Of a stretch of 64,000 nt of DNA, positions 11,109 to 51,310 are shown piece by piece (within the stretch, counting starts at the first letter, position 1; each line of letters starts with the position of its first letter). This stretch comes from a virus (lineage: Duplodnaviria; Caudoviricetes). The DNA lies in IMG/VR virus record IMGVR_UViG_3300013281_000008, positions 1-64,000 of that record; one strand, 5' to 3'. The translations under genes were made by a program, and so were the position numbers. Below the pieces are notes generated by a model, which had not been told where the DNA came from, did not search any database, and was given only the letters and a program-made list of their open reading frames with translations.

Positions 11109-13264
11109 AATACCAATACCTCTGCCAACTTAGCCTGGTTGCGCTTCAATTTATAATTAAGAAACAACGATTTTACATCGATGATATTATCAAATACTAG
11201 CGCAGTTTTATATAGTTTGTCAAGTAGCCTTTTAGGATCATAGTCACCAGCAAAATCTTCAATAAGCTTAATAGTACCATCTTCTTTAAAGTAGGCATGG
11301 ATCTTATCGCCTTCAAATACGGATTTATTCTCTATTGCGTCTTTAACCTTTTGCTCATTACTTCGGTGAGGATTGAGGATCTTCTCGGTTATGGTTTTTT
11401 TATATGCCCATCGATTCATGTCTTTAATATCGAAGATCTCCTTGACATATTTATGGTAAATGTCTACATAATTCGTGTGACCGTCAATCATTGCCTTTAG
11501 TATCTCTTGGATAAACTCAGCAAGTGCTGGTTCCTTCTGAGTAGCTTTAAGGGCTGAGCCTTTAGTCTTAATCTTCTTTCCATCATAAAGGAGATAGTTC
11601 TTAGCTTTAGCAATAACTACTCTAGGATAGTAGCCATCATCTTCCCATCTAATCTTCTCCGGGAATATGGAGTTAAGTTCTACTAGAAGATCTTTCTTTT
11701 CTTGGTCTGAGAAAGGAGATTGATCTTCTTTACAAACCATAATGGAATCAGTGTCGCCAGACGTAATGATAAACTTCTTAGATTCGGCCCAAGATATCGA
11801 TTTATTTAGAATCTCTCTGCCATTCCTTGTGACTTCAGCGGCACCATTTGGATAATTAAAACTAAGTCCAGTTGCACCCATAAAACCAAAGAAACTATTA
11901 ATTAGGATTTTCTGACTCTGTTCTAATCCTGAAAAATAGCCATCTTTAGTTTCTTTTGCTTTCTTCTTGTTCTTCAATCTCTCGGATGTAAAGTATTGGA
12001 GAATCTGTAGCATATTTTGATTTGGATCTTTAGCTTTATCGAAAATCTCATAATTGATCATGATTGAAGGATACAAGCTAGATGCATCCCACTTGACACA
12101 ATGTGAATAAATTCCAGAATGGCCAAATGAAATACCGCCTTCGAATTGTGCTGGAGGTGAGGCTTTCGGAATCGAATGACCTTCCTGTAGATAGCTTCTA
12201 ACCATCAAACCATTAATCTGGCTTCCAGTTGCTGATTCTATAATTGACTGATAAGAACGAGGAATAGATTGGGCCATATAAAAGAATACCGGGCTCATTA
12301 AATCGTAGAGGGCCAATGCATCATCCGCATCGTGTTCGGCATAATCCTTAATCTTCTGCCATTCCTCTTGAATCTGATAATTAGCATTGATTTTGCTAGC
12401 GTCGTAAAACTGTCGTCCTTCTACTTGGAGTCCTTCCTCGGCTATGATATTCTTAAGACTATAGCTTTTGTACTTTCTTCCTACATCGTACTTGAACGCC
12501 AAGAAAAGAGTATCAATTACTTCCCGACCAAAAATAGTAGCTCGATTGTAGTTATAGAACTGGGAGCCATCTTTCCTAAACTTCCTTTGGAATTGCTCAA
12601 ACTTAACCGATGTATTGTTACGTCCTAACTTTAGGAATGTCCGACTCATGTTAGCTACGTGTTGTAAATAGGGCAAGTCAAACATAAAGATATTATGTCC
12701 AACAATAATGGAAGGATCTATTTCTCTCACCCAATCGCACCATTTCTCTAGCATGTCCTTCTGGTTTCTGTACTGATCATAACAAAACATCTTGCGAGTA
12801 ATTTTTCCGTCAAAAGAACGATAAGTATTCGAGATAATCAATACCTTAGAATCGGGAGTATGCTTAATAGACGTCGTTTCAATATCGAAAGAAAGAATAG
12901 ATACTTGCTTATGGTTCATTCCTTTAAAATAGGTAAAGCCATCCTTAAGCATGGCTTGTTCTTTAGGATCATTGGGTGCCCAGACGTCTTCTTTACCAAG
13001 TTCGTAAAGCTTCTTCTCTTTACGGAATTCAAAATAATCATCATAAAGCTTTGCATACTTATAATGAAGATTACCATCAAGCTCTAGCCATCCTTTAGGT
13101 TCTAGGGGTTGTGGGGCTAAAACCCAGGCTTCATAAGGATAAGACAGAGTGGAAATTTCTCCATTCTTTTCAATAAATATCTGAAGTGTGTCCCTATTAT
13201 ACTCAATAGAAACAATATTTTCGGTTGGCTCTTTGCCGTGGACTATTTCAAGGATTTTAGTCAT
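11105..13264 (-). CDS. polB: family B DNA polymerase
   Basis: Exo motifs FDIET, GHNI..FD; pol motifs DASSLYPS, K.L.NS.FG, GDTDS; start ATG 13264 overlaps the primase stop (ATGACTAA). Confidence 0.95.
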   Translation of the reverse strand: MTKILEIVHGKEPTENIVSIEYNRDTLQIFIEKNGEISTLSYPYEAWVLAPQPLEPKGWLELDGNLHYKYAKLYDDYFEFRKEKKLYELGKEDVWAPNDPKEQAMLKDGFTYFKGMNHKQVSILSFDIETTSIKHTPDSKVLIISNTYRSFDGKITRKMFCYDQYRNQKDMLEKWCDWVREIDPSIIVGHNIFMFDLPYLQHVANMSRTFLKLGRNNTSVKFEQFQRKFRKDGSQFYNYNRATIFGREVIDTLFLAFKYDVGRKYKSYSLKNIIAEEGLQVEGRQFYDASKINANYQIQEEWQKIKDYAEHDADDALALYDLMSPVFFYMAQSIPRSYQSIIESATGSQINGLMVRSYLQEGHSIPKASPPAQFEGGISFGHSGIYSHCVKWDASSLYPSIMINYEIFDKAKDPNQNMLQILQYFTSERLKNKKKAKETKDGYFSGLEQSQKILINSFFGFMGATGLSFNYPNGAAEVTRNGREILNKSISWAESKKFIITSGDTDSIMVCKEDQSPFSDQEKKDLLVELNSIFPEKIRWEDDGYYPRVVIAKAKNYLLYDGKKIKTKGSALKATQKEPALAEFIQEILKAMIDGHTNYVDIYHKYVKEIFDIKDMNRWAYKKTITEKILNPHRSNEQKVKDAIENKSVFEGDKIHAYFKEDGTIKLIEDFAGDYDPKRLLDKLYKTALVFDNIIDVKSLFLNYKLKRNQAKLAEVLVL

Positions 13265-15275
13265 TAAACGGCTTCTTAACATCCTTGAACGATTTAATAC
13301 TTAAAATCTTAGTGTTAATAGGTTCATCTGATTCTTCAGCATCGTCCATTACTTCTTCCATGTCATACTGAGCTTCCAGATTCTGTTTCTTCTCAGTCAT
13401 CTTACGAATCATTTGAGCTTTCTTATGATAAGGAATAAAGATCTCGGATTTTTCATCTATTGTCATTGGGCGGAAATCCTTGCTAACTGAGTCTAGAACA
13501 AGGAGGCGCCAATCATACACCGTGATTCGGTCCCGATTCTCCTCGTCTTGCTCTCTGATCTTACAGTATTGGAATGAGGTCACTTTAAGATCAATCTCCT
13601 TCTGAACCCGTCTAAGTGGCTGCCACGCCGTGATGATGTAGTCACAATACCAATCAAAATGAGAAATCCCATAAGCCGCATTGCCTTCAATCGGAATATC
13701 ACCAACCCCAGACTTCGATTTAGTCGTTTGAGACTGAGCTATAATGAATACATCTAGTTCTTTGGCTAAGGTTTTGAGTTCAGCGCAAATCCGCTCAAGT
13801 GGCATACTCTTTTTAGAGTCAAATCCAAAGTCTGCATTATTGATCAGATTAAAATTAGGAATTTTAGTTGTATCGATGACTGGGCTAATCGCGGCAATAT
13901 GGTCAATAGTAATAGCCAGAACCTTCTTTCCGGTCACTTGCTCAGTATGACGCACTGTCCAGTAAATCTCTTGCAAACCTATACGAATCGGATTACCATC
14001 TTCGTCCTCATTACTAATGATGTACAGTCTATCATCAAAATCCTCATGAGCGACATTGCCTTTCTTCCATCTCTTAATCATTTGATGGGCTGGCATTTCC
14101 AAACTGAAGTACATGAGTAGTCCGTCGCCAGTATTATTGCGAGCAATATGCCGAAACATCGACAACGCTAGAGTTGACTTACCAATACCTTCCCCAGCAA
14201 TCAATCCAAGAACTTCAGTTCGCCTCCAACCGGAATGTGTTCGATCCATAAAGGACGGACCATATATTCTTTCACCCATTGTCGGGAGTTTGCCAGACAC
14301 AGTCATTGCTTTAACAGTCGATGCGACGTGAGTCGGACGCATCTTGAATACCTTATCGATAATACCAGTTACATAGTCTTCTGGATTGCCTTGGTATTCT
14401 CTGGCCTTCTTGGTGTGCATCAAAACCTGAAAAACTTCATTCTTATTGAAGAAGTGTTCAAATAGCTTGTTACAGAGGGCATAGTCGGCACTCGATCTAT
14501 CACCACTGGTTTCAATAGGATTCTCAAAAAGCCGACGTATGCCTTCCTCCTTCTTCATCAGTTTGATAAATTTCTCAGGTAAGATAGAGAAGTCAGGAGT
14601 TTGATCCATAATACTTTTATATGTACCATTAAGTCTGGATAATTTCAAGTCCAGTTTTATTCGATCTCTCTCAGATAACGGCTGGATGGTCTTCATTACA
14701 TCCTCAAATGTATAAGTCCCATCGTCCATATACTCGAACAATTCTTGGCACTTCTTTAACTCATTAAACTTCTTAGTATTAATAGTTCCTGGCAGTCTCA
14801 TAATACGAGAAGGATTCCAGATACTAGCATCACTCTTAAAATGAGCTATAAGCCTCAGTTGGCCTTCTAGAAACCTAGCTTGATCTAAGTCAGAGACTCT
14901 CCAGTAAACATGATAGCCATTTCCAGACGTTGTTACAGTTGTAGGAACTGGCTTAAACTTCTTAAGAGATTCCAAGAACTTTTCACCAGAACCGTAGTTA
15001 TCTTGAAGTTGTTTAGCATCAATGTCGATATAGATATATTGAAATACGTCTATATCTTTGTCCTGAATAGTTCCAGTGGGGGGTGTGCTTGGGTAATTTG
15101 GAAAGAAATAAACATTATAGCCCAGTTTATTCTTTTCCTCGATAAATCCATCAGATAGTTCTAGATCACCAATGACATCTGGTCCATCAATCTCTTGAAC
15201 GAAATCTTTATTGGATCTACCAGTAGCTTTACTGATGGGTTTAGCCCATTCTGGTTTTATAAGACGATAATACAT
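13257..15275 (-). CDS. bifunctional primase (RepB/AEP-like)-SF4 (DnaB-like) helicase
   Basis: DID, SGNGYHVYW, RIMRLPGT.N.K primase motifs; GEGIGKS Walker A, FSLEM, IDH, SQ helicase motifs. Confidence 0.88.
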   Translation of the reverse strand: MYYRLIKPEWAKPISKATGRSNKDFVQEIDGPDVIGDLELSDGFIEEKNKLGYNVYFFPNYPSTPPTGTIQDKDIDVFQYIYIDIDAKQLQDNYGSGEKFLESLKKFKPVPTTVTTSGNGYHVYWRVSDLDQARFLEGQLRLIAHFKSDASIWNPSRIMRLPGTINTKKFNELKKCQELFEYMDDGTYTFEDVMKTIQPLSERDRIKLDLKLSRLNGTYKSIMDQTPDFSILPEKFIKLMKKEEGIRRLFENPIETSGDRSSADYALCNKLFEHFFNKNEVFQVLMHTKKAREYQGNPEDYVTGIIDKVFKMRPTHVASTVKAMTVSGKLPTMGERIYGPSFMDRTHSGWRRTEVLGLIAGEGIGKSTLALSMFRHIARNNTGDGLLMYFSLEMPAHQMIKRWKKGNVAHEDFDDRLYIISNEDEDGNPIRIGLQEIYWTVRHTEQVTGKKVLAITIDHIAAISPVIDTTKIPNFNLINNADFGFDSKKSMPLERICAELKTLAKELDVFIIAQSQTTKSKSGVGDIPIEGNAAYGISHFDWYCDYIITAWQPLRRVQKEIDLKVTSFQYCKIREQDEENRDRITVYDWRLLVLDSVSKDFRPMTIDEKSEIFIPYHKKAQMIRKMTEKKQNLEAQYDMEEVMDDAEESDEPINTKILSIKSFKDVKKPFND

Positions 15276-15358
15276 TTCCTCTCCAAATGTAAATTATGAG
15301 CAGTTTATTGCGTCATGCTCAGGACGTCTTTTGCTTGCTTCACATGGGAGGAGAGGGG
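15276..15358 (-). promoter_or_regulatory. RBS-sequestering 5' leader of the primase-helicase gene
   Basis: CCUCUCC (15356-15350) complementary to SD GGAGAGG (15284-15278); AUGUGAA pairs with UUUACAU; inner UGAGCA/UGCUCA hairpin. Confidence 0.65.
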
Positions 15359-15760
15359 TTAACTGTCTTCTTCGACGGAGTATCCGTCAGAGTCTAAATC
15401 TGCTTCATCATTACCCCCAGTTGAAGCAGAGCCCTCGCCTTCCTCGATCAGTGTCGTGCAATTATCATTATTAAGATCAACTTTAAGATTGAACTCAAGA
15501 CCGTCAATTTCCTTCGACGGAGCGTTCAAATAAATGCTATTAACTCGATAAACATTGCCGGTGTTGGTATCCTTGAAAAGGAGCTGTCCTTCGGCTTTAA
15601 TCGTCTTTCCATCTTTGGTCTGACGATCCTTGTTATTAATAAAACAAGTGAATTGTCCGGTATTAAACTTTGACTTCCAAATGGAGCCAATCGTTCGATA
15701 GCCGCTATAGTCCTTTTGAGTCTTAGTTGGTGTCTTTGCTGTTTTGTTTCCGAATCCCAT
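15359..15760 (-). CDS. putative single-stranded DNA-binding protein
   Basis: Beta-rich core with acidic disordered C-terminal tail; located between SSAP and primase. Confidence 0.5.
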   Translation of the reverse strand: MGFGNKTAKTPTKTQKDYSGYRTIGSIWKSKFNTGQFTCFINNKDRQTKDGKTIKAEGQLLFKDTNTGNVYRVNSIYLNAPSKEIDGLEFNLKVDLNNDNCTTLIEEGEGSASTGGNDEADLDSDGYSVEEDS

Positions 15761-17941: not shown

Positions 17942-18031
17942 AATAAATCTTCACCGGGGACAAGATTCGAACCTGTAATAGGTAAATTAACAGTTTACTG
18001 CGTTGCCAATTTCGCCACCCCGGTGAACATC

Positions 18032-21867: not shown

Positions 21868-22366
21868 CGCCTTTAGGTTTCTTAGGGAAAGGAACTAACT
21901 GACCTTTTGGTTTATTATCTTCAATAAGCTGATCTAAATCGTTCAAAAAGGATTCAGGCTCCATTTGAACAACGCCTTGGATTAGCTCAAAGTATTCTTC
22001 TTTAGCTTGCTCCCCATACAGGATCTCTCCGGTTTTATGGCTATGGTGGAAATAAGAGCCAACTAGGAAGTCTGGGAACTGTTTACGCACAGTATCGATA
22101 AACTCCATAACTTCAATTCCTTTGGAAAGGAATGAACAACTAACCACAACTCTATCTTCTTGAGCTTCTATGATAAAATCTACGCCACCCAAAGGAGGAG
22201 TTTTAATACAAATAGCGTAATGAGGGTTTTCTTTGGCTTCTGACTGGTCTTCAACCATCAAAAGATTATCTGGAACGAATTCTTTTAGTTCTTTAAGAAT
22301 TGTTTCCATTTTAAAAACTAAGCTTTTTGAAAGCATGAATACAGCATAGCCTACTGGAGTCTTCAT
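21848..22366 (-). CDS. hypothetical protein
   Basis: 172-aa ORF. Confidence 0.65.
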   Translation of the reverse strand: MKTPVGYAVFMLSKSLVFKMETILKELKEFVPDNLLMVEDQSEAKENPHYAICIKTPPLGGVDFIIEAQEDRVVVSCSFLSKGIEVMEFIDTVRKQFPDFLVGSYFHHSHKTGEILYGEQAKEEYFELIQGVVQMEPESFLNDLDQLIEDNKPKGQLVPFPKKPKGDDPTFN

Positions 22367-22660
22367 GTCAATAGCTAATAAGTAAAGCTTTTCAATAGCC
22401 TATAGCCTACTGGACTAGCAGTACATAGCTATATTTATTCTCTAGAACCCTAAGCCTACTGTAGTCTTTCCAATACAGACCCTTCTCTCCATGTTCTATA
22501 TGAAAGCTATCTGTAGGACTTATTAGCTTATAGTAATAGCAGTATATTGAGTAGCTATTACGTAGGCTAAGACTTACAGTAAGCTATAAGCTAATGTATT
22601 GCTTAATAGCTATAATAAATCCTACTTATTACAAACTGAGCTTATTACACTGTTCTTGTC
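22340..22660. repeat. AGCT/TAGC-rich low-complexity tract with AGCCTACTG direct repeats (candidate origin)
   Basis: tagcctactgga at 22347 and 22403, aagcctactgta at 22452, and numerous AGCT/TAGC motifs; no long ORF. Confidence 0.5.
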
Positions 22661-23185
22661 CCAAAACAATTAAGGAACATGGAGTCGGGAAGTGAACTAC
22701 CTAACCGAACCGGGGTCTTGCAACAGTGCTTTTACCCATATGTTACAAAGTCATAGAATAACTGAAGGTTGGTCGTCTGACTAGGGTAGTTCAACCGGAG
22801 GGCCTCCCAATACCGCGACATAAGCTACTAGCTATCTAGAGCTAGGACTTTACATACTGAAAAGAAGAAAATAGGAATAGAACTCCTAAGATCGTGCTTT
22901 TGTTTTTTTCAGTTAGGCTTATGGTTTGGTACCTTACGCCCGCAGTTTCAGCTATCTTAATTACTATGTGGCTATAACCGCCGTTTTGTTGATTTGGCAG
23001 CAAACTCCAATTGCGGCATAAACGCTGCCCCTTAGAAAGAGTGTTTGGTGTAACTACTCCCAAGTTCCTGCGCTCTAAGAGAGTATTTCATCCCGTCGAT
23101 ACGATTAGGTCAAGTAGTCCACTCAGACTTCGGTAACTTAAATTTTCCAATCCATCATGTGAAGCAAGCAAAAGACGTTCTGTTC
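22660..23185 (-). ncRNA. candidate structured non-coding RNA (~500 nt)
   Basis: Begins just downstream of the TTAATAAGTAT motif; helices 22693-22701/22785-22793 (9 bp), 22996-23001/23024-23029 and 23031-23036/23074-23079; 5' end antisense to the primase leader. Confidence 0.55.
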
Positions 23186-23190
23186 TATAA

Positions 23191-23201
23191 ATACTTATTA
23201 A
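23191..23201 (-). promoter_or_regulatory. TTAATAAGTAT motif (only minus-strand copy seen)
   Basis: TTAATAAGTATTTATAGAACA identical to the copy at 52871(+). Confidence 0.7.
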
Positions 23202-23227
23202 CTTTTCGTTGTGAAAGACCTTTAATT

Positions 23228-23443
23228 TCATAAAACATTTGTTTCCTTTAAATCTTCAATAAGAAGATTTAGCTGACTCACAAGCTGATCCCTAAGCTGA
23301 TCCCTAAGCTGACCCCTAAGCTGAATCCCAAGCTGATCATCAAGCTGACTCCAAAGCTGACTCCAAAGCTGATCCTCAAGCTGACTCCAAAGCGGTCTCC
23401 CAAGCTGACCTTTAATATCTTCTCCTAGAAAGTCTGCTTTCAT
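23228..23443 (-). CDS. xxQL-repeat cassette C (12 units)
   Basis: Family head, units and tail present. Confidence 0.8.
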   Translation of the reverse strand: MKADFLGEDIKGQLGRPLWSQLEDQLWSQLWSQLDDQLGIQLRGQLRDQLRDQLVSQLNLLIEDLKETNVL

Positions 23444-24387
23444 TTGCGCTTCTTCCTAAACTTATTTAGCATAGACTTTTGGAAACCATATGGATCTTCA
23501 TCGTCTTCACTATCTTCATATGGATCGTATTCATCATTTTCAGCGTCTAGATGAGCTTCCATCATTTGCCTAGCTTTCAGAATAGCATCTTCAAACTTAA
23601 TACCAATACAAAGGACGCTAATAATAAGATCTTTAATATGGTCAATTGTAAAACCCTCGGTTTGCCGAACCCAGTATTCTACATCAATCTCATCTTTCAC
23701 TTTAGCTTTAAGGAACTCCCTTCTAGCATTAGCATCTGGAGTAGGAACTTCAATCACAAGAGCAAATCTAGAAGGTCTATTTCGAATACGAGGAGGAATC
23801 CTATCTAAATAATTAGTTGTAGCGATGTAAAGAACATTCTGAATCTGCATCTCACCATCTAGTAGGGAGAGGAAAGAGCCTTCGTCTCGCTCAAGCAACT
23901 TGTCCAGTTCTTCAAAGATAACTAGAATTCTTCTTTCTTGCTTCTCAATACTTCTGATAATATCCACAGCTTCAGTAAGTAGGCTGGGAGATGGACAGAA
24001 GAATACAATACTTCCGTTATTAACTTCTTTCTCAATTACTTTCGAAACTATACTAGTTTTTCCCGTCCCAGGTAAACCCCAAAGTAGAATTCCACGCTTG
24101 TAAACCATCCCATACTTAGCATAACGACTCTTAACATCTTCCGACCAAAACTGCTCAATCTCACTGATAATTGTAGAACCAACGAAACTGGGAAGTTCAA
24201 CTAGGTCATCAGTCATACTGGACATATTCTTAAAGAACATCTCTCCAGACATATCTCGATGAATTTGATAAATACCAGCTGGGAACTCTTTTTTTCCAGG
24301 ATAGTTCTTTCTTTTGAAATAGACTACTTCTCCGTTAGTGAGAAAGCCATCGTATTCCTTCTCAATTTTGTTTATAATTTTAGGCAT
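23440..24387 (-). CDS. AAA+ ATPase
   Basis: GILLWGLPGTGKT, FEELD, TTNY, NRPSRF (second region of homology). Confidence 0.9.
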   Translation of the reverse strand: MPKIINKIEKEYDGFLTNGEVVYFKRKNYPGKKEFPAGIYQIHRDMSGEMFFKNMSSMTDDLVELPSFVGSTIISEIEQFWSEDVKSRYAKYGMVYKRGILLWGLPGTGKTSIVSKVIEKEVNNGSIVFFCPSPSLLTEAVDIIRSIEKQERRILVIFEELDKLLERDEGSFLSLLDGEMQIQNVLYIATTNYLDRIPPRIRNRPSRFALVIEVPTPDANARREFLKAKVKDEIDVEYWVRQTEGFTIDHIKDLIISVLCIGIKFEDAILKARQMMEAHLDAENDEYDPYEDSEDDEDPYGFQKSMLNKFRKKRK

Positions 24388-24616
24388 TCTTCTTCTCCTT
24401 CAAATCCTCAATAAGCTGACTCCTAAGCTGATTCCCAAGCTGATCCCTAAGCTGTCTCCAAAGCTGACTCATAAGCTGATCATAAAGCTGACTCCTAAGC
24501 TGATCCCAAAGCTGACTCATAAGCTGATCCCAAAGCTGACTCAAAAGCTGACTCCTAAGCTGACTCCTAAGCTGATAGTTCAAATCTTCACCTAGGAAAT
24601 CCTGATTAGCTTTCAT
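24380..24616 (-). CDS. xxQL-repeat cassette D (14 units)
   Basis: Family head, units and tail present. Confidence 0.8.
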   Translation of the reverse strand: MKANQDFLGEDLNYQLRSQLRSQLLSQLWDQLMSQLWDQLRSQLYDQLMSQLWRQLRDQLGNQLRSQLIEDLKEKKNA

Positions 24617-25308
24617 GGAAGCCTCCAGTAGATAGTATCTTGTTTATTCTTTTTTAGAAATTCATTTACTTTAGAGAAGTGTTTACACCAAAAGAATCCC
24701 TTATGAGCAGACATCGGACTAGGATGTGCTGCTTCCAGTATTAAATGATTCGAATTGGTAATTAAATGCTTTTTCTGCTGAGCTAGTTTACCCCACAATA
24801 CCCAGACAATAGGCTGTTTTAAATCATTTACAATACGAACAACCTCGTCAGTGAATGTTTCCCATCCTAGATTCTTATGACTGAGAGGCTTTCCTTTCTC
24901 AACGGTTAGAATTGTATTAAGTAGGAATACTCCCTGAATGGCCCAGTAAGAAAGATCCCCACTTTTGTTTTCAATACCAGAATCAATCTTCAAGGCTCTA
25001 AAGATATTTGTTAAAGACTTAGGATGTTTTGCTGAATCTCTAACGGAAAAAGCTAATCCGGTAGCCGATCCGTCGTGATAAGGATCTTGACCAAGAATAA
25101 CAACCTTGATATTCCAGGGAGGACAAAGATCAAAAGCTTTAAATACATCAAAGCTCATTGGATAGATTGTTGTCCCATTAAATCTCATTTCTTTAATCCT
25201 ATTTTGCATTTCAATAAAGTAGGGTTTTTCAAACTCCACTCTAAGAAGATAATTCCAATTATTCTCCATCATTTTGTACATCTTGTAAACTTCTCTGTCT
25301 TTAACCAA
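24613..25308 (-). CDS. ung: uracil-DNA glycosylase, family 1
   Basis: GQDPYH, GLAFSV, LLNT.LTV, HPSP motifs. Confidence 0.95.
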   Translation of the reverse strand: MVKDREVYKMYKMMENNWNYLLRVEFEKPYFIEMQNRIKEMRFNGTTIYPMSFDVFKAFDLCPPWNIKVVILGQDPYHDGSATGLAFSVRDSAKHPKSLTNIFRALKIDSGIENKSGDLSYWAIQGVFLLNTILTVEKGKPLSHKNLGWETFTDEVVRIVNDLKQPIVWVLWGKLAQQKKHLITNSNHLILEAAHPSPMSAHKGFFWCKHFSKVNEFLKKNKQDTIYWRLP

Positions 25309-25425
25309 TCAAGCTTTAAACTAATTACGTTTACCGTTCCACCAATAAAATAGCCTAAAACTAAACAAAGTACAAACATGCAAATTACAGGCCAAGGAAA
25401 CACTTTAAACATATTGCTTTAAAAA

Positions 25426-25533
25426 TTATATAGACCCAGACCAAGACCAAGACCTAGACCCAGACCCAGACCTAGACCCAGACCCAGACCAATATTCTTT
25501 TCTGTATTTATTCTTTTGACTTCTTGGTAACAT
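25426..25533 (-). CDS. 35-aa Ser-Gly/Trp/Arg dipeptide-repeat peptide (not in ORF track)
   Basis: Translates as MLPRSQKNKYRKEYWSGSGSRSGSGSRSWSWSGSI*; starts 1 nt after the Sm-like gene stop. Confidence 0.6.
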   Translation of the reverse strand: MLPRSQKNKYRKEYWSGSGSRSGSGSRSWSWSGSI

Positions 25534-25534
25534 A

Positions 25535-25810
25535 TTAAAGTTTTGCTTTCAATAAAGTAAAACTTTCAATAGTATTAATCATTACATAAACGTCATTTGG
25601 GAGCTTTTGAGCATCCTTAAAACTTGAATCATTAAATGACCCAGTTTCGTAAATAATTGCAGCATTGTTTAGCTTTACACATTTTTCATTTACTCCTTCA
25701 AGAGTTCCTGAGTAAATATAATTCAAGCAAAACAACGTCACTTGCTTCCCGAGTAATGCAATTAGTCCTTCGTTATCCACTTCAATTACTGCCGTTGGTA
25801 GTTTTTTCAT
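25535..25810 (-). CDS. Sm/LSm-fold-like protein
   Basis: L.LLGK.V.L....Y.G.L.GV....V.L.NA Sm1-like motif and VYV....IESF Sm2-like motif. Confidence 0.55.
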   Translation of the reverse strand: MKKLPTAVIEVDNEGLIALLGKQVTLFCLNYIYSGTLEGVNEKCVKLNNAAIIYETGSFNDSSFKDAQKLPNDVYVMINTIESFTLLKAKL

Positions 25811-26066
25811 ACTTATTCCCTTTCTTAATTAATTTAGATCGATTTTATCGTAGTCATCCTCATCACAGTTTGGGCAAATTCCGTCATCATCATTTACATA
25901 GCCCAGATAGTGGCAGCATCGATCTCTAAACATATCAGCTAACCACTCTCTATCGCAGCTTTGGCATTTATGGGCTACTTTCTCTGAATTTTGAATGTTA
26001 TATTTCATACTTTTAGCTTACTTCAAATCCTCATAAGTTTCAATTAGTCTATCTAAATTATTGAGA

Positions 26067-26387
26067 TTATTCATCTTTTAGTGCTTCATACCTAAGAGAT
26101 AGAAGATTATGTTCCAGGCTTAGTCGTTTAGAATAGTTAATTCTGGCTATCCGTCTCAGAACATTCTTCGTAATATCCTCCCCAGTTTGATGTTCGATAA
26201 CCTTAATTTGCATTCCTTCTTTTAAGAGATTGGTTATTTCAGTCAAGTTAATATAAGACCTTCGGTACTTTCGTTTGGCCGTTGGTGTCAAGTAAGTATC
26301 CTTCTCATAACCTTTTGCCCAATACTTTCGATTAGGATATCTCTTGATAACAATTGTATTCATGATTTCTTTCCATGAACTAGGCAA
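26067..26387 (-). CDS. PhaR-type (PHA accumulation regulator) DNA-binding domain protein
   Basis: IKRYPNRK...SYINL.EI..L.KEG..I.V....TGEDIT..VL motif; start may be ATG 26363. Confidence 0.75.
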   Translation of the reverse strand: MPSSWKEIMNTIVIKRYPNRKYWAKGYEKDTYLTPTAKRKYRRSYINLTEITNLLKEGMQIKVIEHQTGEDITKNVLRRIARINYSKRLSLEHNLLSLRYEALKDE

Positions 26388-26560
26388 CCGAATTCACACT
26401 TAATAAAAGGTTGTTGTCTCATAGCAGCTTCTTCTCTTTTTCTAGCGAAGAACTTTTTCCAATCTTTATCTCGCATTTCTCGCTTAATCGTTAATAGCCC
26501 TTTTTTCTTCTTTAAAAAGCGTTTAGATCGTATTAGTTCCATCGACTTTTCCTCCTTCAA
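26360..26560 (-). CDS. hypothetical basic protein
   Basis: 66-aa ORF. Confidence 0.45.
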   Translation of the reverse strand: MKEEKSMELIRSKRFLKKKKGLLTIKREMRDKDWKKFFARKREEAAMRQQPFIKCEFGCLVHGKKS

Positions 26561-26750
26561 TAACCTTAAGCATAGGCTCTACGATACACCATCCAAGTCT
26601 CGCCGTCTTATAAAAGGGCATCATAACTTCTTTTATTTCAATTGAGAAAGAATAAGCTTCTCTTTCGTTTTTGAAAGTAAGACTTCTTTCTTCTTGGATA
26701 TCTAAATCAACATAGAAGATTTTATATGTTACTCGCCAAATCTGATTCAT
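26523..26750 (-). CDS. hypothetical protein
   Basis: 75-aa ORF, SD supplied by cassette E. Confidence 0.55.
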   Translation of the reverse strand: MNQIWRVTYKIFYVDLDIQEERSLTFKNEREAYSFSIEIKEVMMPFYKTARLGWCIVEPMLKVIEGGKVDGTNTI

Positions 26751-26884
26751 TTATTTCTCTCCTTTAAATCTTCGTTAAGCTGACTCCAAAGCTGACTCAT
26801 AAGCTGACCCCCAAGCTGATCCCTAAGCTGTCTCGCAAGCTGATCCTTCAATTCTTCACCTAGGAAATCCTGATTAGCTTTCAT
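26747..26884 (-). CDS. xxQL-repeat cassette E (6 units, 45 aa; not in ORF track)
   Basis: Translates as MKANQDFLGEELKDQLARQLRDQLGGQLMSQLWSQLNEDLKERNK*; ATGA overlaps at both ends. Confidence 0.8.
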   Translation of the reverse strand: MKANQDFLGEELKDQLARQLRDQLGGQLMSQLWSQLNEDLKERNK

Positions 26885-27066
26885 AAAAACCTATAAATAA
26901 AGTGAATGATAGTTACAACTACTAGTAATTTAATAATGTCATCGAGAATTTCATTAGTCGATTCCAATCGCTTAATTGAATTTCTAATTTCCTTGATTTT
27001 TTTATCAAACTTTCTTTGCTCGATCTTTTCTCGAAATTCATAACAATCGACTTTAATATGTTCCAT
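26881..27066 (-). CDS. small protein with C-terminal TM helix
   Basis: Coiled coil followed by a hydrophobic tail. Confidence 0.5.
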   Translation of the reverse strand: MEHIKVDCYEFREKIEQRKFDKKIKEIRNSIKRLESTNEILDDIIKLLVVVTIIHFIYRFL

Positions 27067-27350
27067 TATAAATCCCTCTTTATAGTTTTTACGATCTCTT
27101 GAAACTTAACATATTGAATACGATTCATTAAATGCAGAGCAATAAAATGAAGCTCATTTAATTCTTTAAGCATGTGTTTTTTAATGTTAGTACAAGCCTG
27201 TAGTCTTTCCATCGTTCTATGTAAACTACCAGTCTCTATTTCCTTTTCAGCTTCTTTTAGACGTTTAAAACGAGCGGTAAATGCTCTGAATCTATCAGCA
27301 AAGACTGCTTTCTGTTCATCATTAATTTGCATGTTAGATTTGGTTTTCAC
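27066..27350 (-). CDS. hypothetical protein
   Basis: 94-aa ORF, GTG start after the cassette F SD. Confidence 0.55.
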   Translation of the reverse strand: MKTKSNMQINDEQKAVFADRFRAFTARFKRLKEAEKEIETGSLHRTMERLQACTNIKKHMLKELNELHFIALHLMNRIQYVKFQEIVKTIKRDL

Positions 27351-27450
27351 TTTTCTCCTTCAAATCCTCAATAAGCTGACTCCTAAGCTGATTCCCAAGC
27401 TGATTACTAAGCTGACCCTTCAACTCTTCACCTAGAAAGTCAGAGTTCAT
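27334..27450 (-). CDS. xxQL-repeat cassette F (4 units, 38 aa; not in ORF track)
   Basis: Translates as MNSDFLGEELKGQLSNQLGNQLRSQLIEDLKEKSENQI*. Confidence 0.78.
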   Translation of the reverse strand: MNSDFLGEELKGQLSNQLGNQLRSQLIEDLKEKSENQI

Positions 27451-27737
27451 TTAATATCCTTCAAATCCTCAATAAGCTGATCCCAAAGCTGATCCCTAAG
27501 CTGACTCCCAAGCTCTTTCCCAAGCTGATCCTCAAGCTGACTCCCAAGCTCTTTCCCAAGCTGATCCTCAAGCTGACTCCAAAGCGGTCTCCCAAGCTGA
27601 ATCTTAAGCGGACCCTCAAGCTGACTCCAAAGCTGACTCCAAAGCTGATCCTCAAGCTGACTCCAAAGCGGTCTCCCAAGCTGACTCCAAAGCTGATAGT
27701 TCAAATCTTCACCTAGGAAATCCTGATTAGCTTTCAT
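27447..27737 (-). CDS. xxQL-repeat cassette G (19 units)
   Basis: Family head, units and tail present; tandem with F. Confidence 0.8.
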   Translation of the reverse strand: MKANQDFLGEDLNYQLWSQLGRPLWSQLEDQLWSQLWSQLEGPLKIQLGRPLWSQLEDQLGKELGSQLEDQLGKELGSQLRDQLWDQLIEDLKDIK

Positions 27738-28132
27738 TTAATATCTCCGAAGAATTCTTCGATAATCCGCTTTGAAACTTTGATAATCTGACTATTTCTC
27801 ATATAAACTAGATAAGCTTCATATATCTTTTGAGTATTTTGGCTCATATCACCAAGTATAACTGCAAACCCTCTTACTTTTGATTGCTTTCTAGAGTCTC
27901 TCCAGTGAACTCGACTTACAACTCCATCTAAAGCAAGCTTTCCAAGATCTCCTGGTAGTATAACGTCTACTCTACACCATTCTTTAGGTGTTGGTAACTC
28001 CCCATTTGTTTCAAAGAACATTCCTTTATTACTTAGATCTTTTAACTTCAAATCTCCAGATGATGTTTCCCAAGCAACTGACAGTCTATCATTCACAATT
28101 GGGATTCGAATGTCTGATCTCTTTTCTTTCAT
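27734..28132 (-). CDS. PilZ-domain protein
   Basis: RxxxR (RSDIR) and DxSxxG (DLSNKG) c-di-GMP motifs; G.V.R...GFAV beta-barrel pattern. Confidence 0.8.
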   Translation of the reverse strand: MKEKRSDIRIPIVNDRLSVAWETSSGDLKLKDLSNKGMFFETNGELPTPKEWCRVDVILPGDLGKLALDGVVSRVHWRDSRKQSKVRGFAVILGDMSQNTQKIYEAYLVYMRNSQIIKVSKRIIEEFFGDIK

Positions 28133-28133
28133 T

Positions 28134-28526
28134 TTACTTCTCTAAGTAATAGTAGGTCTTCGAGTCTGGATCAAAAGTATAGTCCTTATCTATAATAGTC
28201 TCTTTACAATTAGTGCCTTTAAATTGGCCTGCATATTTGTAAGTCCCATCTTGAAACAAAAAATAAGCATTTCGAAAACCGTCTAATTTTAAAGCACATT
28301 CTTGGGTGAAATCTTTAAGGAATTGAATAATTTGATCGTCGCAACCGCCAATTGCAATTAAACTATCCTCATGGACGCCTTTAAAACAACCGGATACGTC
28401 CTTAACTTGAAATCCATCGTTAAGTAAGTATTTTCGGCCATTTTCATGGGCTTTTAGATTAGTAGCTTCACAATTCTGCGCGTTATATGCACTAATAATA
28501 TAAGTAACTGGATAAAATGGTCTCAC
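28134..28526 (-). CDS. DUF3293/SAM-lyase-like small protein
   Basis: ISAYN...N...GF...V.G.FKG..E.S....F.QEC.L pattern. Confidence 0.4.
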   Translation of the reverse strand: MRPFYPVTYIISAYNAQNCEATNLKAHENGRKYLLNDGFQVKDVSGCFKGVHEDSLIAIGGCDDQIIQFLKDFTQECALKLDGFRNAYFLFQDGTYKYAGQFKGTNCKETIIDKDYTFDPDSKTYYYLEK

Positions 28527-28551
28527 GTCGTACTCCTCCCATCGTTTTAAT

Positions 28552-28941
28552 TTAGTCTACTACAGGACGGATCATCTCGTCAAACATGCCCTTCTCACGG
28601 ACCTGTCCAATTCGATAATCTCCCACTGGAACTGGCACTTTATCGTGTTCATTATGTACAAGGTTTGTTTCCTTGAACACTCGCAAATAGGTTACATTTG
28701 AAGTAGGATCTCGAAATACCATAAAATTCCGTGAATCCTTATTCTTTTCAGGCGCTCCATGAACTTTAGCCATTTGGTCGACATTTTCACCTTCATCTAC
28801 AAGTCGGTGTGCATGTCCCGTATGCTCACCATGAGCCAATACATAGTTCCTAGGATCTTCTACAACTCCGCTTGGGATTGCATCGATCTTATAGATTAGT
28901 ACATCGCCTTGTTCTCTGATTTCTCGTGCTTCATCTGACAT
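28552..28941 (-). CDS. conserved partner protein (QGDV / GExTGHxH / HxEH motifs)
   Basis: EQGDV, LAHGEHTGHAH, LVHNEH, G.Y.I.QVRE; start ATG 28941. Confidence 0.65.
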   Translation of the reverse strand: MSDEAREIREQGDVLIYKIDAIPSGVVEDPRNYVLAHGEHTGHAHRLVDEGENVDQMAKVHGAPEKNKDSRNFMVFRDPTSNVTYLRVFKETNLVHNEHDKVPVPVGDYRIGQVREKGMFDEMIRPVVD

Positions 28942-28955
28942 TTTAGTTCTCCTTT

Positions 28956-29837
28956 TTAAGTTAAAATTATAGGTTCCAAATAGTTCGGCAGATTCATTCT
29001 CCACGCAAGCGCCGCCTTGCAAGTCTCAATTGTGTCTTCCACTCTCTCATAATGATAGGTGTTAGTCAAGCTGGGATTCTTCATACATAAGACCTTCCTA
29101 ACGACTCCATCTCCAAAGTCCATTGAATAGAGTTTGTAGTCGCACCAAGCTTTTCTATCGTCTTTCCATTCATCTAGTAACTTAGAATTAGTATCCTTTA
29201 AAAGCCGTTCTACTGGAATAAGCTTTAATGCTTCTCGTCTGATATCGACATTCTGCTCACCAAGAATCTTCTTTACGTCGAGCTTTTCTTTAGGAGTTTC
29301 AATAACATAAGCTGGCACTCGAATACCATTTAAAGCATAGATACCCCAGCCATCACGGTATTTAATAGCCATCTTTCCCTCATTATGTAGCCGTCCGTCT
29401 TTCATTGAGACAAACTCCGGTCTATCGCAAATAATGGCAGCTTTTTCATAGAAATAGACCCAACCGCAACTTTTAGCTAGTTTGGACCATTGTTCTAGTA
29501 ATTTACTTTGATCTTTGGTATACTTCACGCCAATTTGCTCGCAAAATTGATAGAAAGCAATCCAATAGTTATCTTGTTGACCCCAGAAATAAGTCCCATT
29601 GTAAACAGCGGCCTTATTTCCTTTGGCTTTATTTATCAATTTTTCAGCTTCTAGAGGCGATGAAACCTTGATAATTTCAGGCTCGGGTTTTTCTAACCGT
29701 CTATAGAATTCTTTGATAATTCTTTCAGCCACTTCGAAATTGGCGGGTTCTGTCGATAGACCAACTTCAAGTGCCTTTTGTCTGAATTCAATTAGATCTT
29801 GTTCCTGTTGTTTTGTTAATGATTCAATTTTCTTCAT
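28956..29837 (-). CDS. DUF6745-like protein
   Basis: LT..Q......ST.P.....SP..A...GQ.D.YW..FY...CGW...ICDRP.....GRLH.E...A..Y.DGW..YA.NG.RVP. Confidence 0.65.
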   Translation of the reverse strand: MKKIESLTKQQEQDLIEFRQKALEVGLSTEPANFEVAERIIKEFYRRLEKPEPEIIKVSSPLEAEKLINKAKGNKAAVYNGTYFWGQQDNYWIAFYQFCEQIGVKYTKDQSKLLEQWSKLAKSCGWVYFYEKAAIICDRPEFVSMKDGRLHNEGKMAIKYRDGWGIYALNGIRVPAYVIETPKEKLDVKKILGEQNVDIRREALKLIPVERLLKDTNSKLLDEWKDDRKAWCDYKLYSMDFGDGVVRKVLCMKNPSLTNTYHYERVEDTIETCKAALAWRMNLPNYLEPIILT

Positions 29838-30048
29838 TTTCTTTCTCCTTCAAATCTTCTTCAAACTGATTCCTAAGCTGCCACCCAAGCTGACTCCCAA
29901 GCTGATTCCCAAGCTGACTCCCAAGCTGATTCCCAAGCTGACTCCCAAGCTCTTTCCCAAGCTGATTCACAAGCTGACTCCCAAGCTGAATCTTAAGCTG
30001 ACTCACAAGCTGACCCTTCAATTCTCCACCTAGAAAGTCAGAGTTCAT
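29824..30048 (-). CDS. xxQL-repeat cassette H (13 units)
   Basis: Family head, units and tail present; supplies the SD of the DUF6745-like gene. Confidence 0.8.
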   Translation of the reverse strand: MNSDFLGGELKGQLVSQLKIQLGSQLVNQLGKELGSQLGNQLGSQLGNQLGSQLGWQLRNQFEEDLKEKENEEN

Positions 30049-30362
30049 TTAATATCCTTCAAATCCTCAATAAGCTGATTCCCAAGCTGACTCCCAAGTT
30101 GACTCCCAAGCTGATCCCTAAGCTGACTCCCAAGCTCTTTCCCAAGCTGATCCTCAAGCTGACTCCAAAGCTGATCCTCAATCTGACTCCAAAGCGGTCT
30201 CCCAAGCTGAATCTTAAGCGGACCCTCAAGCTGACTCCAAAGCTGACTCCAAAGCTGATCCTCAAGCTGACTCCAAAGCGGTCTCCCAAGCTGACTCCAA
30301 AGCTGACTCTTCAATTCTTCACCTAGGAAATCCTCTTTTTTCAATCGGCTTGCTTTCGGCAT
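30045..30362 (-). CDS. xxQL-repeat cassette I (20 units)
   Basis: Family core and tail present; tandem with H. Confidence 0.78.
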   Translation of the reverse strand: MPKASRLKKEDFLGEELKSQLWSQLGRPLWSQLEDQLWSQLWSQLEGPLKIQLGRPLWSQIEDQLWSQLEDQLGKELGSQLRDQLGSQLGSQLGNQLIEDLKDIK

Positions 30363-30568
30363 ATTTGAACCCTCACAATTCCGGGTGTGTTAAGAGCCTT
30401 CTTGATCGTATGTCTCATTATAACATCAAACGTGGCAGTCTCAGGATCAAAAAACAACGTAATGCTATTCTCCCGATCTACTTCACATGAGCTTACCACA
30501 TGCACGCTCTTTCGATAAGCTACATCATAAATTTCAATTGGAGCAACTGGCGGCATATCAAATATCAT
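30341..30568 (-). CDS. hypothetical protein
   Basis: 75-aa ORF with GGAGG SD. Confidence 0.5.
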   Translation of the reverse strand: MIFDMPPVAPIEIYDVAYRKSVHVVSSCEVDRENSITLFFDPETATFDVIMRHTIKKALNTPGIVRVQICRKQAD

Positions 30569-30731
30569 TTTTCATTCCTCCATTTCATAGCTTCAATGTT
30601 ATATTCCATTTGCCTAATCATATATTCAAAGTCTAGCATGAATTCTTCTAAAGCGATAGAGGCCCTAATATGATTTTCTTTAACTCTGTCTTGATAATCC
30701 TTAATAAGTTCTGGATATTCTTTAATGATTT

Positions 30732-31025
30732 TCATAGTTTAATATCCTTCAAATCCTCAATAAGCTGATCCCTAAGCTGACTCCCAAGCTGACTCCCAAG
30801 CTGACTCACAAGCTGACTCCAAAGCTGACTCCTAAGCTGACTCACAAGCTGACTCCCAAGCTGATTCCCAAGCTGATCCCTAAGCTGTCTCCAAAGCTGA
30901 CTCATAAGCTGATCATAAAGCTGACCTCTAAGCTGATTCCCAAGCTGACTCACAAGCTGACCTCTAAGCTGATCCCAAAGCTGACCCTTCAATTCTCCAC
31001 CTAGGAAATCCTGATTAGTTTTCAT
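30732..31025 (-). CDS. xxQL-repeat cassette J (19 units)
   Basis: Family head, units and tail present. Confidence 0.8.
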   Translation of the reverse strand: MKTNQDFLGGELKGQLWDQLRGQLVSQLGNQLRGQLYDQLMSQLWRQLRDQLGNQLGSQLVSQLRSQLWSQLVSQLGSQLGSQLRDQLIEDLKDIKL

Positions 31026-37503: not shown

Positions 37504-37514
37504 TTAATAAGTAT
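37504..37514 (+). promoter_or_regulatory. TTAATAAGTAT candidate late promoter
   Basis: Intergenic, at the start of the plus-strand arm. Confidence 0.7.
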
Positions 37515-49001: not shown

Positions 49002-49570
49002 ATGAAACCATATGGAATTATCTATAAAGTTACTAATAAATCCAATGGAAAGGTCTACATCGGGCAGACTGTTCAAGGTCTGAAACAACGTAAAAACAAA
49101 CATATTTATACTTCTAAACGACAGATAACAAATTTGCATTACATCATGCTATAAATAAATATGGAAAAGAAAGCTTTGATTTTGAGACTATTTGTTCTTG
49201 CTTTGACATTGATGAGCTAAATAAACAAGAACAACATTTTATCGAACAATACAAATGTATCGCACCCAATGGCTATAACTTGAAAAATGGTGGCTATAAT
49301 AAAAAGTATAGTGAAACGACCATTCGTAAAATGAAAGAAATAGCGAGTAAACGAGGCCCTAATCATCCATCGACTTTAGCTCTTTTAGATAGAAGTAAAA
49401 ACTATCAAAAACAAAAAGGTTGTATTGGTAATGTTAGACGTTTTATTCAAGCCGAAGATGGGACGATTTATACAGGTGTTACTGAATTAGCTAAAAAGCT
49501 CGACACAACGGCTTCTTCAATACATAATTCTATTAAAAAAAGAGGCAAATATATTTGCCTATTATTTTAA
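49002..49570 (+). pseudogene. GIY-YIG homing endonuclease with a -1 frameshift near 49120
   Basis: GIIYKVTN..NGKVYIGQT in the first frame; ...AINKYG.E.F...E.HFI..Y....PNGYNL..GG continues in the -1 frame from 49121. Confidence 0.8.
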
Positions 49571-49577
49571 TAAGTAT
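49567..49577 (+). promoter_or_regulatory. TTAATAAGTAT candidate late promoter
   Basis: Ahead of the MCP leader. Confidence 0.7.
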
Positions 49578-49762
49578 ATATGGAAACATAGGTTTAGCTC
49601 CAAACGCTAAATCTTTTGAACGTTCAAAAGACTATTCAAAAGGTATTTAGGGTTAGGACACTAGATAAATGTTCTGTAGGGTTTATCCGTTCTGGACAAC
49701 TCTAAATAATCATTAAAACTAGTATTTTAACATTTAACCTAAATCAAAGGATATACAATAAT

Positions 49763-51310
49763 ATGTCAGGTGCAAATATTGTCAGCACGCTGTCTGGTCT
49801 GTTCAAAGAACAGTACAGTGACAAGCTCATGGATCTAGTTCCAGATGGCGTCAAGATGCTTCGAATGGTTCCATTCGTAGAATCTAGTAAAGAAATCGGT
49901 AATTTTTACCATCAGCCTTCTGTTTAAGCATAGGGCCCCTTATTAGAAATGATAAGGTAAACACTCTTTGAATTGCTGGAAACTCCAAAATAGGGACAAT
50001 CAGCAGCCAAGCTGTAGAAATACAGAAGGTTCAACGACTAGGTCATATGACCGTACCGTCAAGCGACGGGAAGTGGAGAGCATCCGAAAGGATGAAGAGA
50101 TAGTCTAATCTTGCAGGTAACTGCAAGCTGCTCGAAAGAGCGGACAAGATGTAGCGAATCTTGTTGAATATAAATGGTGCTTTTGGCACAAGAACACGGA
50201 CTCACGTACGCCCCGGCGAACGGAACGGCCTTCTCCCTAGGAGATGCCATTGCTGCTCGTCTTCAAGATGCTCAAATCGCTGGCGCTCAACTTCTGTTGC
50301 GCTCCTCGATCAGCTATGAAGCCGCTGCCCGTGCGTCGAACGATAAGAAAGCTTTCGTGAAAGCGACCAGCCTTCTTGTCGAAAACATGCTCAACTCAAT
50401 CAGCAAGCGATTGGAAATCTCGCTTCTCTACGGACAATCAGGCCTTGCCTCGTCTGTAGCGACGACTAACCAATCTGCTACTTCTACCCGTCTGGAAGTT
50501 CCTGCGGCTTCTTGGGCCCCTGGAATCTGGTCTGGATCGGAAAACGCTGTTTTGGTTGCGTACAACGGTACAACCCGTCTGAACGCTGCGGATACCGCTG
50601 GTTACACGGTTACTTCGGTTGATCTTCTCAACCGATATGTATTCGTGTCTGCATCTAGTGCTGATATTACGGCGATTGACGCTGCTTCTGGTAGCATCAC
50701 GCTGTACTTCCTCAGTTCAGTGGTTGGTTCCGGTGGAGGTCAAACCTTTAACGAAATGGCCGGTCTTGATAAGATCATTACGAACACTGGCTCGCTCTTC
50801 AACATCAACGCTTCTACGTATGCGTTGTGGAAAGGTAACTCCTACAGCGCCGGATCTGCGTCACTTAGCTTGACAAAGATCTTGAACGCCGTGGCGTTTG
50901 CCGTGGAACGTGGTCTTGATGAAGATGTAGTTTGCATGATGTCTGCAAAGACGTGGGCAAACATTGCTTCTGATCAAGCTGCTCTTCGTATCTATGATCA
51001 AAGCTACAAGCCCTCGAAGCTTGAAAACGGTGCTTCTGAGTTCGTGTTCAACGGACAAAATGGTCGCATCGAAATCCACACTTCAATCTACGTCAAAGAA
51101 GGTGAAGCATTCGTGTTTCCTCTTAAGAGACTTAAGAGAATTGGAGCTATGGATGTTAGCTTTAAAATGCCTGGTCGTAGCCAACAAGAAGACTTCTTCT
51201 TGGAGCTATCTAATGCTGCTGGGTACGAGCTCAGATGTTATACTGATCAAGCAATCTTCTGTGATTCGCCTGCGAAACTCGTGAAGATTACGAACATCGT
51301 TAATAGCTAA
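49763..51310 (+). CDS. major capsid protein, spliced: exon 1 49763-49918, exon 2 50177-51310 (429 aa)
   Basis: Exon 1 MSGANIVSTLSGLFKEQY...FYHQP joins in frame to VLLAQEHG...; follows the scaffold gene; high-expression codon bias. Confidence 0.85.
49919..50176 (+). mobile_element. group I intron (IA-like, 258 nt, ORF-less)
   Basis: P AAUUGCUGGAAA, Q AAUCAGCAG, R GUUCAACGACUA, S AAGAGAUAGUC; P1 GCCU|U:AGGGC with U.G; P10 AAGCAU:GUGCUU; terminal omega-G at 50176; P7.1/P7.2 hairpins. Confidence 0.92.

Follow-up and report, generated by a model that had tools for sequence, protein, structure and literature searches.

A candidate phage non-coding RNA gene shares the 5' domain of a pseudoknotted RNA family found upstream of UvsW/XPB-like helicase genes

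Introduction

Large bacterial and phage RNAs that contain several covarying pseudoknots and invariant loop bases are mostly ribozymes, RNP cores or RNA-only assemblies, and, to our knowledge, new classes of large multi-pseudoknot RNAs are rare. The pRNA of phage phi29 (~120-174 nt) acts in packaging; we take it to be a structured phage RNA that works with an ATPase motor. It is not homologous to the element described here, which neighbours genes for an AAA ATPase and a helicase. ColE1 RNA II and the T4 origin transcripts prime replication through RNA-DNA hybrids. Our locus resembles ColE1 RNA II and the T4 oriF/oriG middle-promoter transcripts in that a putative promoter-driven RNA of a few hundred nucleotides has an A+T-rich tract directly downstream and a UvsW-like helicase gene adjacent to it. 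In a further respect it resembles DsrA and RprA acting on rpoS, and toehold switches: a predicted single-stranded segment at the 5' end is complementary to one arm, the upstream one, of a hairpin in a leader, and the Shine-Dalgarno sequence is in the other arm. Unlike in DsrA and RprA, the predicted pairing goes far beyond typical seeds, the RNA body is 4-5 times larger, and the 5' segment is not conserved in relatives.

Among phage-borne RNAs, the closest described systems are GOLLD (RF02032) and ROOL (RF03087; structures in bioRxiv 10.1101/2024.12.08.627333), 'ornate' ncRNAs of unknown function that are linked to phages and prophages. Like these, the family that we describe is several hundred nucleotides long and has many covarying helices and pseudoknots; unlike these, it has no match in Rfam 15, is smaller (~330 nt), and is fixed in the replication module rather than beside tRNA genes. 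Candidate structured RNAs from IMG/VR, described as 29-151 nt long (Fremin et al. 2023, PMC10690425), come from the same source as our family and rest on the same kind of evidence, namely intergenic covariation in uncultured phages. Going by the lengths given there, our family is set apart from these candidates, one of which may nevertheless overlap a fragment of it.

Results

A gene-free gap in the replication arm of an uncultured phage

We analysed a stretch of DNA (the window) that makes up the first 64 kb of the 83,142-bp record of an uncultured virus. Near-identical contigs have bioreactor sludge as their source, and the phage was also detected in wastewater. Minus-strand genes up to ~37 kb are early and replication genes, and this replication arm codes for a UDG, an AAA ATPase, an SF2 helicase, an RNase H-fold protein, a DnaB-like primase-helicase and a family-B polymerase; the plus-strand arm codes for terminase, portal, scaffold, major head and other virion proteins. 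We found no close cultured phage, and the best match of the terminase is only 30% identical. Within the replication arm, minus-strand genes flank a gene-free gap of 861 bp (22367-23227, minus strand). Upstream of the gap are the AAA ATPase gene and a 71-aa repeat minigene (23228-23443, minus strand), and downstream are a 172-aa ORF and then the SF2 helicase gene, whose product has T4 UvsW (2OCA, E 2e-11) and XPB among its solved-structure matches. The gap is 100% identical in contigs of three further samples while the adjacent minigene varies; since these contigs are invariant across the RNA, they provide no covariation information. Two wastewater 'RNA-Seq' runs, probably DNA, cover only 23073-23520, and do so thinly.

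A previous reading of this DNA, made from the sequence alone, had described the region as about 860 bp without a credible ORF. The gap is real and was non-coding by every test that we ran, but it does contain a 47-aa ORF (23231-23091), which JGI called as a gene and whose start overlaps the minigene stop as ATGA. The frame of this ORF stays open to 22842, a length of 129 codons, save for one TGA. The two open pieces have codon scores of 0.03 and -0.05 bits per codon, below those of every long gene (0.35 +/- 0.12), and searches of Pfam and PHROG gave no match for the 47-aa ORF, the 81-codon open frame or the TGA read-through version. In relatives, the core of the RNA family described below has 2-13 stops in every frame and lacks 3-base periodicity. 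On these sequence data, the gap would best be explained as an ncRNA gene read from the minus strand rather than as a protein gene.

The sequence-only reading had proposed a new, multi-domain structured RNA on the basis of three helices, all of which exist, and all on the minus strand. Two of them did not hold up as evidence. Of dinucleotide shuffles, 17% contain an inverted repeat of 9 perfect bp within 120 nt, so that the 9-bp helix singled out there is not special, and 6-bp repeats are at the shuffle mean; neither the 9-bp helix nor CUUAGA/UCUAAG has comparative support. The third, GGCAGC/GCUGCC, is equally ordinary as a 6-bp repeat but proved to be a conserved, covarying stem of a pseudoknot (stem A, below). 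The minimum free energy of 22640-23185 is no better than that of shuffles on the minus strand (z = -0.7) or the plus strand (z = -0.6). An Rfam scan, which the same reading had proposed as a check, bore out its failure to recognise a tRNA, tmRNA, RNase P or intron core: cmscan of window positions 22200-23500 with Rfam 15 returned nothing at the gathering threshold or at E up to 10, and hence no match to RNase P, tmRNA, group I/II introns, 6S, GOLLD, ROOL, HEARO or riboswitches. The tRNA/tmRNA negative in the gap rests on the Rfam models. Across five relatives' loci, at E up to 1, the scan gave only isrG (E 0.14), a chance match outside the gap.

Related phages keep a pseudoknotted RNA at the same place

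Relatives were traced to contigs through homologues of the AAA ATPase (50-60% identity) and the helicase; the contigs fetched represent part of the ~300 AAA-ATPase and helicase homologues listed. Searching for related loci with single proteins yielded no AAA ATPase relative and one weak, partial helicase match, and searching with an AAA alignment yielded mostly unrelated ATPases. In every fetched relative except one (L190), a gene-free gap of 390-830 nt is found on the same strand upstream of the helicase operon. Its length is 400-550 nt in phages with 50-57% identity in the AAA ATPase and 39-53% in the helicase. The gaps could be aligned as DNA for L011, L014, L012/L013 and L016, and for loci from pattern scans (L139, L177, L153, L178-L183 and L191); those of L011 and L014, for example, share 70% identity over 430 nt. 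The proteins flanking these alignable gaps are only ~40-57% identical to those of the window. In a blastn search, neither the window's gap nor either of two family members matched a GenBank phage, and we found no occurrence of the family's conserved strings in the literature that we searched. A separate pattern scan of IMG/VR for the window-like 5' domain gave a single match, within a coding region, which we took as chance.

We built an alignment of nine sequences from seven lineages (A7), on which we tested the helices predicted by RNAalifold together with three crossing helices read from the alignment. The resulting RNA of ~330 nt has 73 pairs in 13 helices with three pseudoknots, and 94.6% of cells in A7 are paired. 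Changes on both sides were observed in 38 of the 73 pairs, as compared with 2-11 when partners were slid by 1-3 columns, and none of 500 shuffles reached the observed values. Thus, the gaps of related phages carry covarying RNA structure, as the sequence-only reading had suggested that a search of homologues might reveal, and its proposal of a new structured ncRNA is supported by this covariation. It is because of the covariation in homologues, and not because of helices seen by eye, that a structured ncRNA is the best reading of the locus. We conclude that related uncultured phages very probably keep a previously undescribed, heavily pseudoknotted ncRNA just upstream of the UvsW/XPB-like helicase gene, a conclusion that their aligned sequences support well.

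At the 5' end of the family RNA is an H-type pseudoknot in which stem A forms a hairpin and the loop of that hairpin pairs with the 3' flank to give stem B. Stem B is followed by a conserved, single-stranded motif, GGUNAUAG. Helices 3 and 4 come with a conserved UGAAAYUG in the helix-4 loop. Helices 5 and 6 enclose an invariant hairpin (helix 7), helices 8 and 9, which carry an invariant UUGGUU...UGCCU, and a long hairpin (helix 10). The long-range helix 11 (GGUSAAA/UUUSACC) shows G-C to C-G swaps and crosses helices 5 and 6, and the loop of helix 4 is connected to the 3' end by helix 12. Because G-U pairs are invariant, we place the RNA on the gene-sense strand. The relative nearest to the window by helicase identity (L015, 53%) has a 3' domain that, in our reading of its sequence and of an alignment to the 3' covariance model (R2), appears to have diverged almost beyond recognition by that model, with helices 7, 8, 9, 11 and 12 kept by compensatory change.

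The window shares the 5' pseudoknot domain

To compare the window with the family we used two covariance models, the 5'-domain model R1, built without the window or L015, and the 3' model R2. R1 was searched against 170 kb comprising the window, L015 and nine other relatives' loci. It matched the window at 23029-22901 (minus strand) with 19.8 bits, at E 0.025 for 170 kb or 0.02 for 139 kb, a modest score whose calibration is rough. L015 scored 35.1 bits (E 3e-6), and family members scored 108-135 bits. The window and L015 were the only two new matches of R1, and both are at the syntenic place on the expected strand: in the window, the genes on either side have the same strand as the element, which occupies the gap that precedes the SF2 helicase operon. 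The features of the window's copy are listed in Table 1.

Table 1. Features in and around the gap, in the order of the predicted RNA, followed by the site complementary to its 5' end
Feature	Position	Strand	Evidence or content
Late-type promoter motif, 17 nt	23185..23201	-	Motif recurrence in genome
Predicted 5'-terminal 27 nt (head)	23156..23182	-	26/27 complementary to 15346-15320
Window-specific leader/linker	23030..23155	-	CUUAGA/UCUAAG helix (23079-23074 / 23036-23031) and most of the 47-aa ORF
5' pseudoknot domain	22901..23029	-	Stem A, stem B, GGUUAUAG motif (22979-72), UGAAACUG motif (22950-43)
Imperfect 16-bp A/U-rich hairpin (candidate)	22856..22913	-	Inverted repeat, 88% complementary; MFE fold
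Helix 7 and helix 8-like module	22768..22807	-	GGAG-loop-CUCC, G, 4-bp stem (GUUG/CAAC) enclosing 20 nt
9-bp perfect helix enclosing 83 nt	22793-22785 / 22701-22693	-	Inverted repeat; chance rate 17%
3' tail, then A+T-rich, AGCT- and repeat-dense tract before 172-aa gene	22367..22692	-	G+C, repeats
Putative target of the head	15320..15346	-	Leader of DnaB-like primase-helicase gene (13257-15275), then family-B DNA polymerase

Stem A has 7 bp in the window (23029-23023 / 23002-22996) and is the GGCAGC/GCUGCC helix; stem B has 5 bp (23017-13 / 22981-77). The window has both family motifs, GGUNAUAG (22979-72) and UGAAAYUG (22950-43), correctly ordered and spaced. A model-guided alignment (A10) shows stem A paired in each of the nine sequences, through five different pair sets, and all five of its pairs have changed on both sides; stem B is 89% paired and covaries across the window, L015 and the family. 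Of the 24 pairs in A10, 20 have changed on both sides, as compared with 3-7 in controls. When the window is aligned to R1, 3 of 10 positions in helix 4 are mismatched, and helix 3 is deleted. Reading from the sequence, we identified an alternative candidate for helix 4, of 7 bp (22960-54 / 22892-86). These data support membership of the window in the putative RNA family, specifically for its 5' domain.

The 3' half is different. R2 found no match in window positions 22660-22900, nor, with default filters, in L015, and the invariant 3' motifs UUGGUU and UGCCU were not found in the window. For both reasons, the RNA body of the window may be only partly functional, and the description of the element as multi-domain, which is true of the relatives, did not extend to the window, whose 3' half has no match to the family's 3' model. 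The module at 22807-22768 is laid out as in L015, which we put forward as a possible resemblance only. The 9-bp helix, which competes with the 4-bp stem of that module, may be an analogue of the family's long-range helix 11. Beyond it, G+C falls to 0.33-0.36, compared with 0.40-0.44 in the RNA body, and direct and inverted repeats are dense; this tract could hold promoters, protein-binding sites or an unwinding element. A TAGGCTAT-like word of window positions 22367-22660 is found again in L011, L014 and L181, there too downstream of the RNA element, and could be a promoter or a protein-binding site. We did not find an intrinsic terminator on the minus strand of the window, and the RNA may for this reason run on into the helicase operon. 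At the other end, relatives lack the linker, and their element starts at stem A. The linker is not structured beyond chance (fold z = +1.3).

A late-type promoter motif and an antisense 5' end

The element follows a 17-nt motif (23201-23185) that the sequence-only reading had described as a late-type promoter and as the only copy on the minus strand. Both descriptions agree with the distribution of the motif: this is the only perfect minus-strand copy in the 83-kb genome, and every other copy, four perfect and two near-perfect, is on the plus strand of the structural arm and precedes terminase, portal, head or other virion genes. Allowing up to 3 mismatches, the genome has 7 matches, compared with 1.0 expected. 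The copy at 37504 has a Shine-Dalgarno sequence and an ATG no more than 18 nt beyond it, which places the expected start of transcription immediately downstream of the motif; on this basis, the RNA probably starts at about 23184-23178. In the record of the L012 lineage, we found no recurrence of the promoter motif beyond the copy itself. A motif resembling that of the window directly precedes stem A in L011, and a sigma-70-like promoter precedes the element in L139.

The RNA predicted from this start would open with the head, and the proposal in the sequence-only reading of an antisense or guide segment at the 5' end is borne out to the extent that 26 of its 27 positions show complementarity to the primase-helicase leader, which belongs to a different transcript of the phage. 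A DNA search of the phage's own genome retrieved this match as an inverted repeat of 27 nt with 96% identity (E 1.4e-6). The centroid fold leaves most of the head unpaired. The target is 45-71 nt upstream of the primase-helicase start codon. In the predicted fold of the leader (15262-15372, minus strand; z = -2.1), the Shine-Dalgarno sequence GGAGAGG is paired with a CCUCUCC further upstream, and bases adjacent to the Shine-Dalgarno sequence are paired with part of the target. In the 9-13 kb loci of relatives we found no antisense match comparable to the head; this, and the lack of head and linker in relatives, indicates that trans pairing is not a family trait. A possible alternative reading of the 27-bp inverted repeat in the DNA is a protein-binding site that has been duplicated.

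Discussion

We propose that the gap contains a late-promoter-driven ncRNA gene whose product would act in trans, and that this RNA would consist of an antisense head, a linker and a pseudoknotted body that belongs to a new family of phage RNAs. We hold this reading with roughly equal measures of belief and doubt. Transcription would start just downstream of the late-gene promoter motif, at ~23184-23178, and the RNA would begin with a 27-nt single-stranded head complementary to the leader of the primase-helicase/DNA polymerase operon, 7.8 kb away. A linker of ~125 nt would follow, and then the structured body, which over its first ~130 nt (23029-22901) shares homology with the 5' pseudoknot domain of the family. 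In late infection, pairing of the head in trans with the replication-operon leader would alter the translation or stability of that leader, in either direction: binding might unfold the leader or generate a site for RNase III. The role of the conserved body with its pseudoknots would be that of a folded module, either to bind a partner or to protect the RNA. A bolder form of this proposal, which we consider doubtful, is that the family is a new class of large triple-pseudoknot RNA, a ribozyme or a replication-linked RNP core restricted to a clade of uncultured 70-85 kb phages, and that it is fused here to a guide-like head as a natural two-module RNA, such that a programmable antisense segment and a conserved, folded effector or scaffold act on the replisome operon.

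The most serious alternative is that promoter, structured RNA and A+T-rich repeat tract together form an origin of replication. The transcript would form an R-loop that primes the leading strand, as do ColE1 RNA II or the T4 oriF/oriG transcripts, and the UvsW-like helicase would later remove the hybrid. The location within the replication module, next to an SF2 helicase gene with structure matches to T4 UvsW and XPB, fits an origin, as do the A+T-rich, repeat-dense tract after the element in the window, the tandem repeats of varying copy number after the element in L139 and L182, and the presence of RNase H-fold and family-B polymerase genes in the phage. Nonetheless, we think an origin unlikely. 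The helicase start codon of L012 and L181 is only ~60 nt beyond the RNA, too close to accommodate an unwinding element; three covarying pseudoknots with invariant loop bases, a feature that ColE1 RNA II and the T4 origin RNAs are not known to have, exceed the known needs of a primer; and the promoter in the window is late-type, whereas origin firing would be expected early or in mid-infection.

The element might also act in cis, as a 5' leader of the helicase operon in which a riboswitch-like structure or a protein-binding operator controls read-through or translation downstream. It is always upstream of the helicase operon and on the same strand, and in L012 and L181 it is directly upstream, with no terminator in the ~60 nt between; the window, too, has none that we could find. 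We nevertheless regard a cis-acting leader as quite unlikely, given that terminator hairpins follow the element in L011 and L139, that promoter-like sites are present between it and the next gene in L181, L014 and L011, and that one to three unrelated small genes intervene before the helicase gene in several phages; more generally, relatives carry repeats or promoter-like sites after the element. Moreover, known leaders do not resemble an RNA of ~330 nt that has three pseudoknots but lacks an expression platform, and no Rfam riboswitch was matched.

A decaying remnant would account for the failure of R2 in the window: only the 5' domain would have been kept, the rest of the gap would be spacer with promoters and repeats, and the 27-nt match would be a duplicated site or a recombination scar. 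In keeping with decay, the gap of the window is about twice as long as those of relatives, its fold energy and the helices picked out by eye are at chance, and the locus turns over, since L184/L017, L186 and L188 have unrelated sequence there and L190 has no gap. However, compensatory changes have kept both pseudoknot stems in perfect pairing, which points to selection that continues; L015 suggests that very divergent 3' domains can keep the architecture; and the region is 100% identical in contigs of three further samples in which the minigene varies. Weighing these points, we judge decay to be improbable, to much the same degree as a cis-acting leader. Finally, we give almost no credence to a protein-coding gap, in which the 47-aa ORF is translationally coupled to the minigene and possibly extended to ~129 aa by TGA read-through: the ATGA overlap, the JGI call and the long open frame favour it, but codon scores and family searches do not, the frame crosses covarying RNA stems, the neighbouring gene uses TGA as its stop, and relatives lack an ORF at the same place.

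If the late-promoter-driven, trans-acting RNA that we favour is correct, the head would be a natural phage example of a long antisense 'key' that opens or cuts a self-closed replisome leader. The promoter motif predicts when the RNA would be expressed, and the 27-nt match predicts its target. For the family as a whole, the covariation is strong and comes from only seven lineages, and the fixed address in the replication module, beside the UvsW/XPB-like helicase gene, provides a concrete place to seek a putative partner.

The position before the helicase gene holds different non-coding sequence in several relatives (L184 10684-11384, L017 8967-9796, L186 8006-8445 and L188 3506-3919). The sequences of L184 and L017 have 73% in common over 139 nt, and that of L188 has a GGUAUAG...ACGUG stretch reminiscent of the RNA family; these may be further RNA elements, either unrelated or very divergent. 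L139 (8387-8600) and L182 (reverse strand) belong to nearly identical phages that differ in the copy number of tandem repeats after the element, which consist of CTGTTAA / CTGTATA units between the RNA element and a terminator hairpin. Genes for RNA repair and translation rescue are found near the helicase gene in L015 (9713-10633), L188 (7555-10190) and L190 (3066-4217 and 9500-10687); they encode a T4-type RNA ligase, a PNKP-like kinase/phosphatase, RtcB, PTH2 peptidyl-tRNA hydrolase and ribosome recycling factor. One family member, L191 (contig CAZNER010000025.1, 26 kb; 99.5% identical to L179), is binned into a MAG labelled Candidatus Saccharibacteria, which hints at the host unless the phage contig was mis-binned; in view of that possibility, we do not treat the bin as host evidence.

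In the phage itself, the minigene next to the gap is one of a set built of 12-bp repeats, with more copies at 24380-31025, and these minigenes hold almost all differences between the phage and the near-identical contigs of other samples. The replication arm includes a tRNA gene (window 17952-18024, minus strand; 60.6 bits). In the structural arm, a group I intron (RF00028, 94.8 bits) is located at 49909-50127 (plus strand), just upstream of the major head ORF (50174-51310), with a variant of the late promoter motif nearby at 49567-49583. A gene for a 478-aa HNH-type homing endonuclease (51413-52849) is also near the major head ORF, and the capsid gene may be split by the group I intron.
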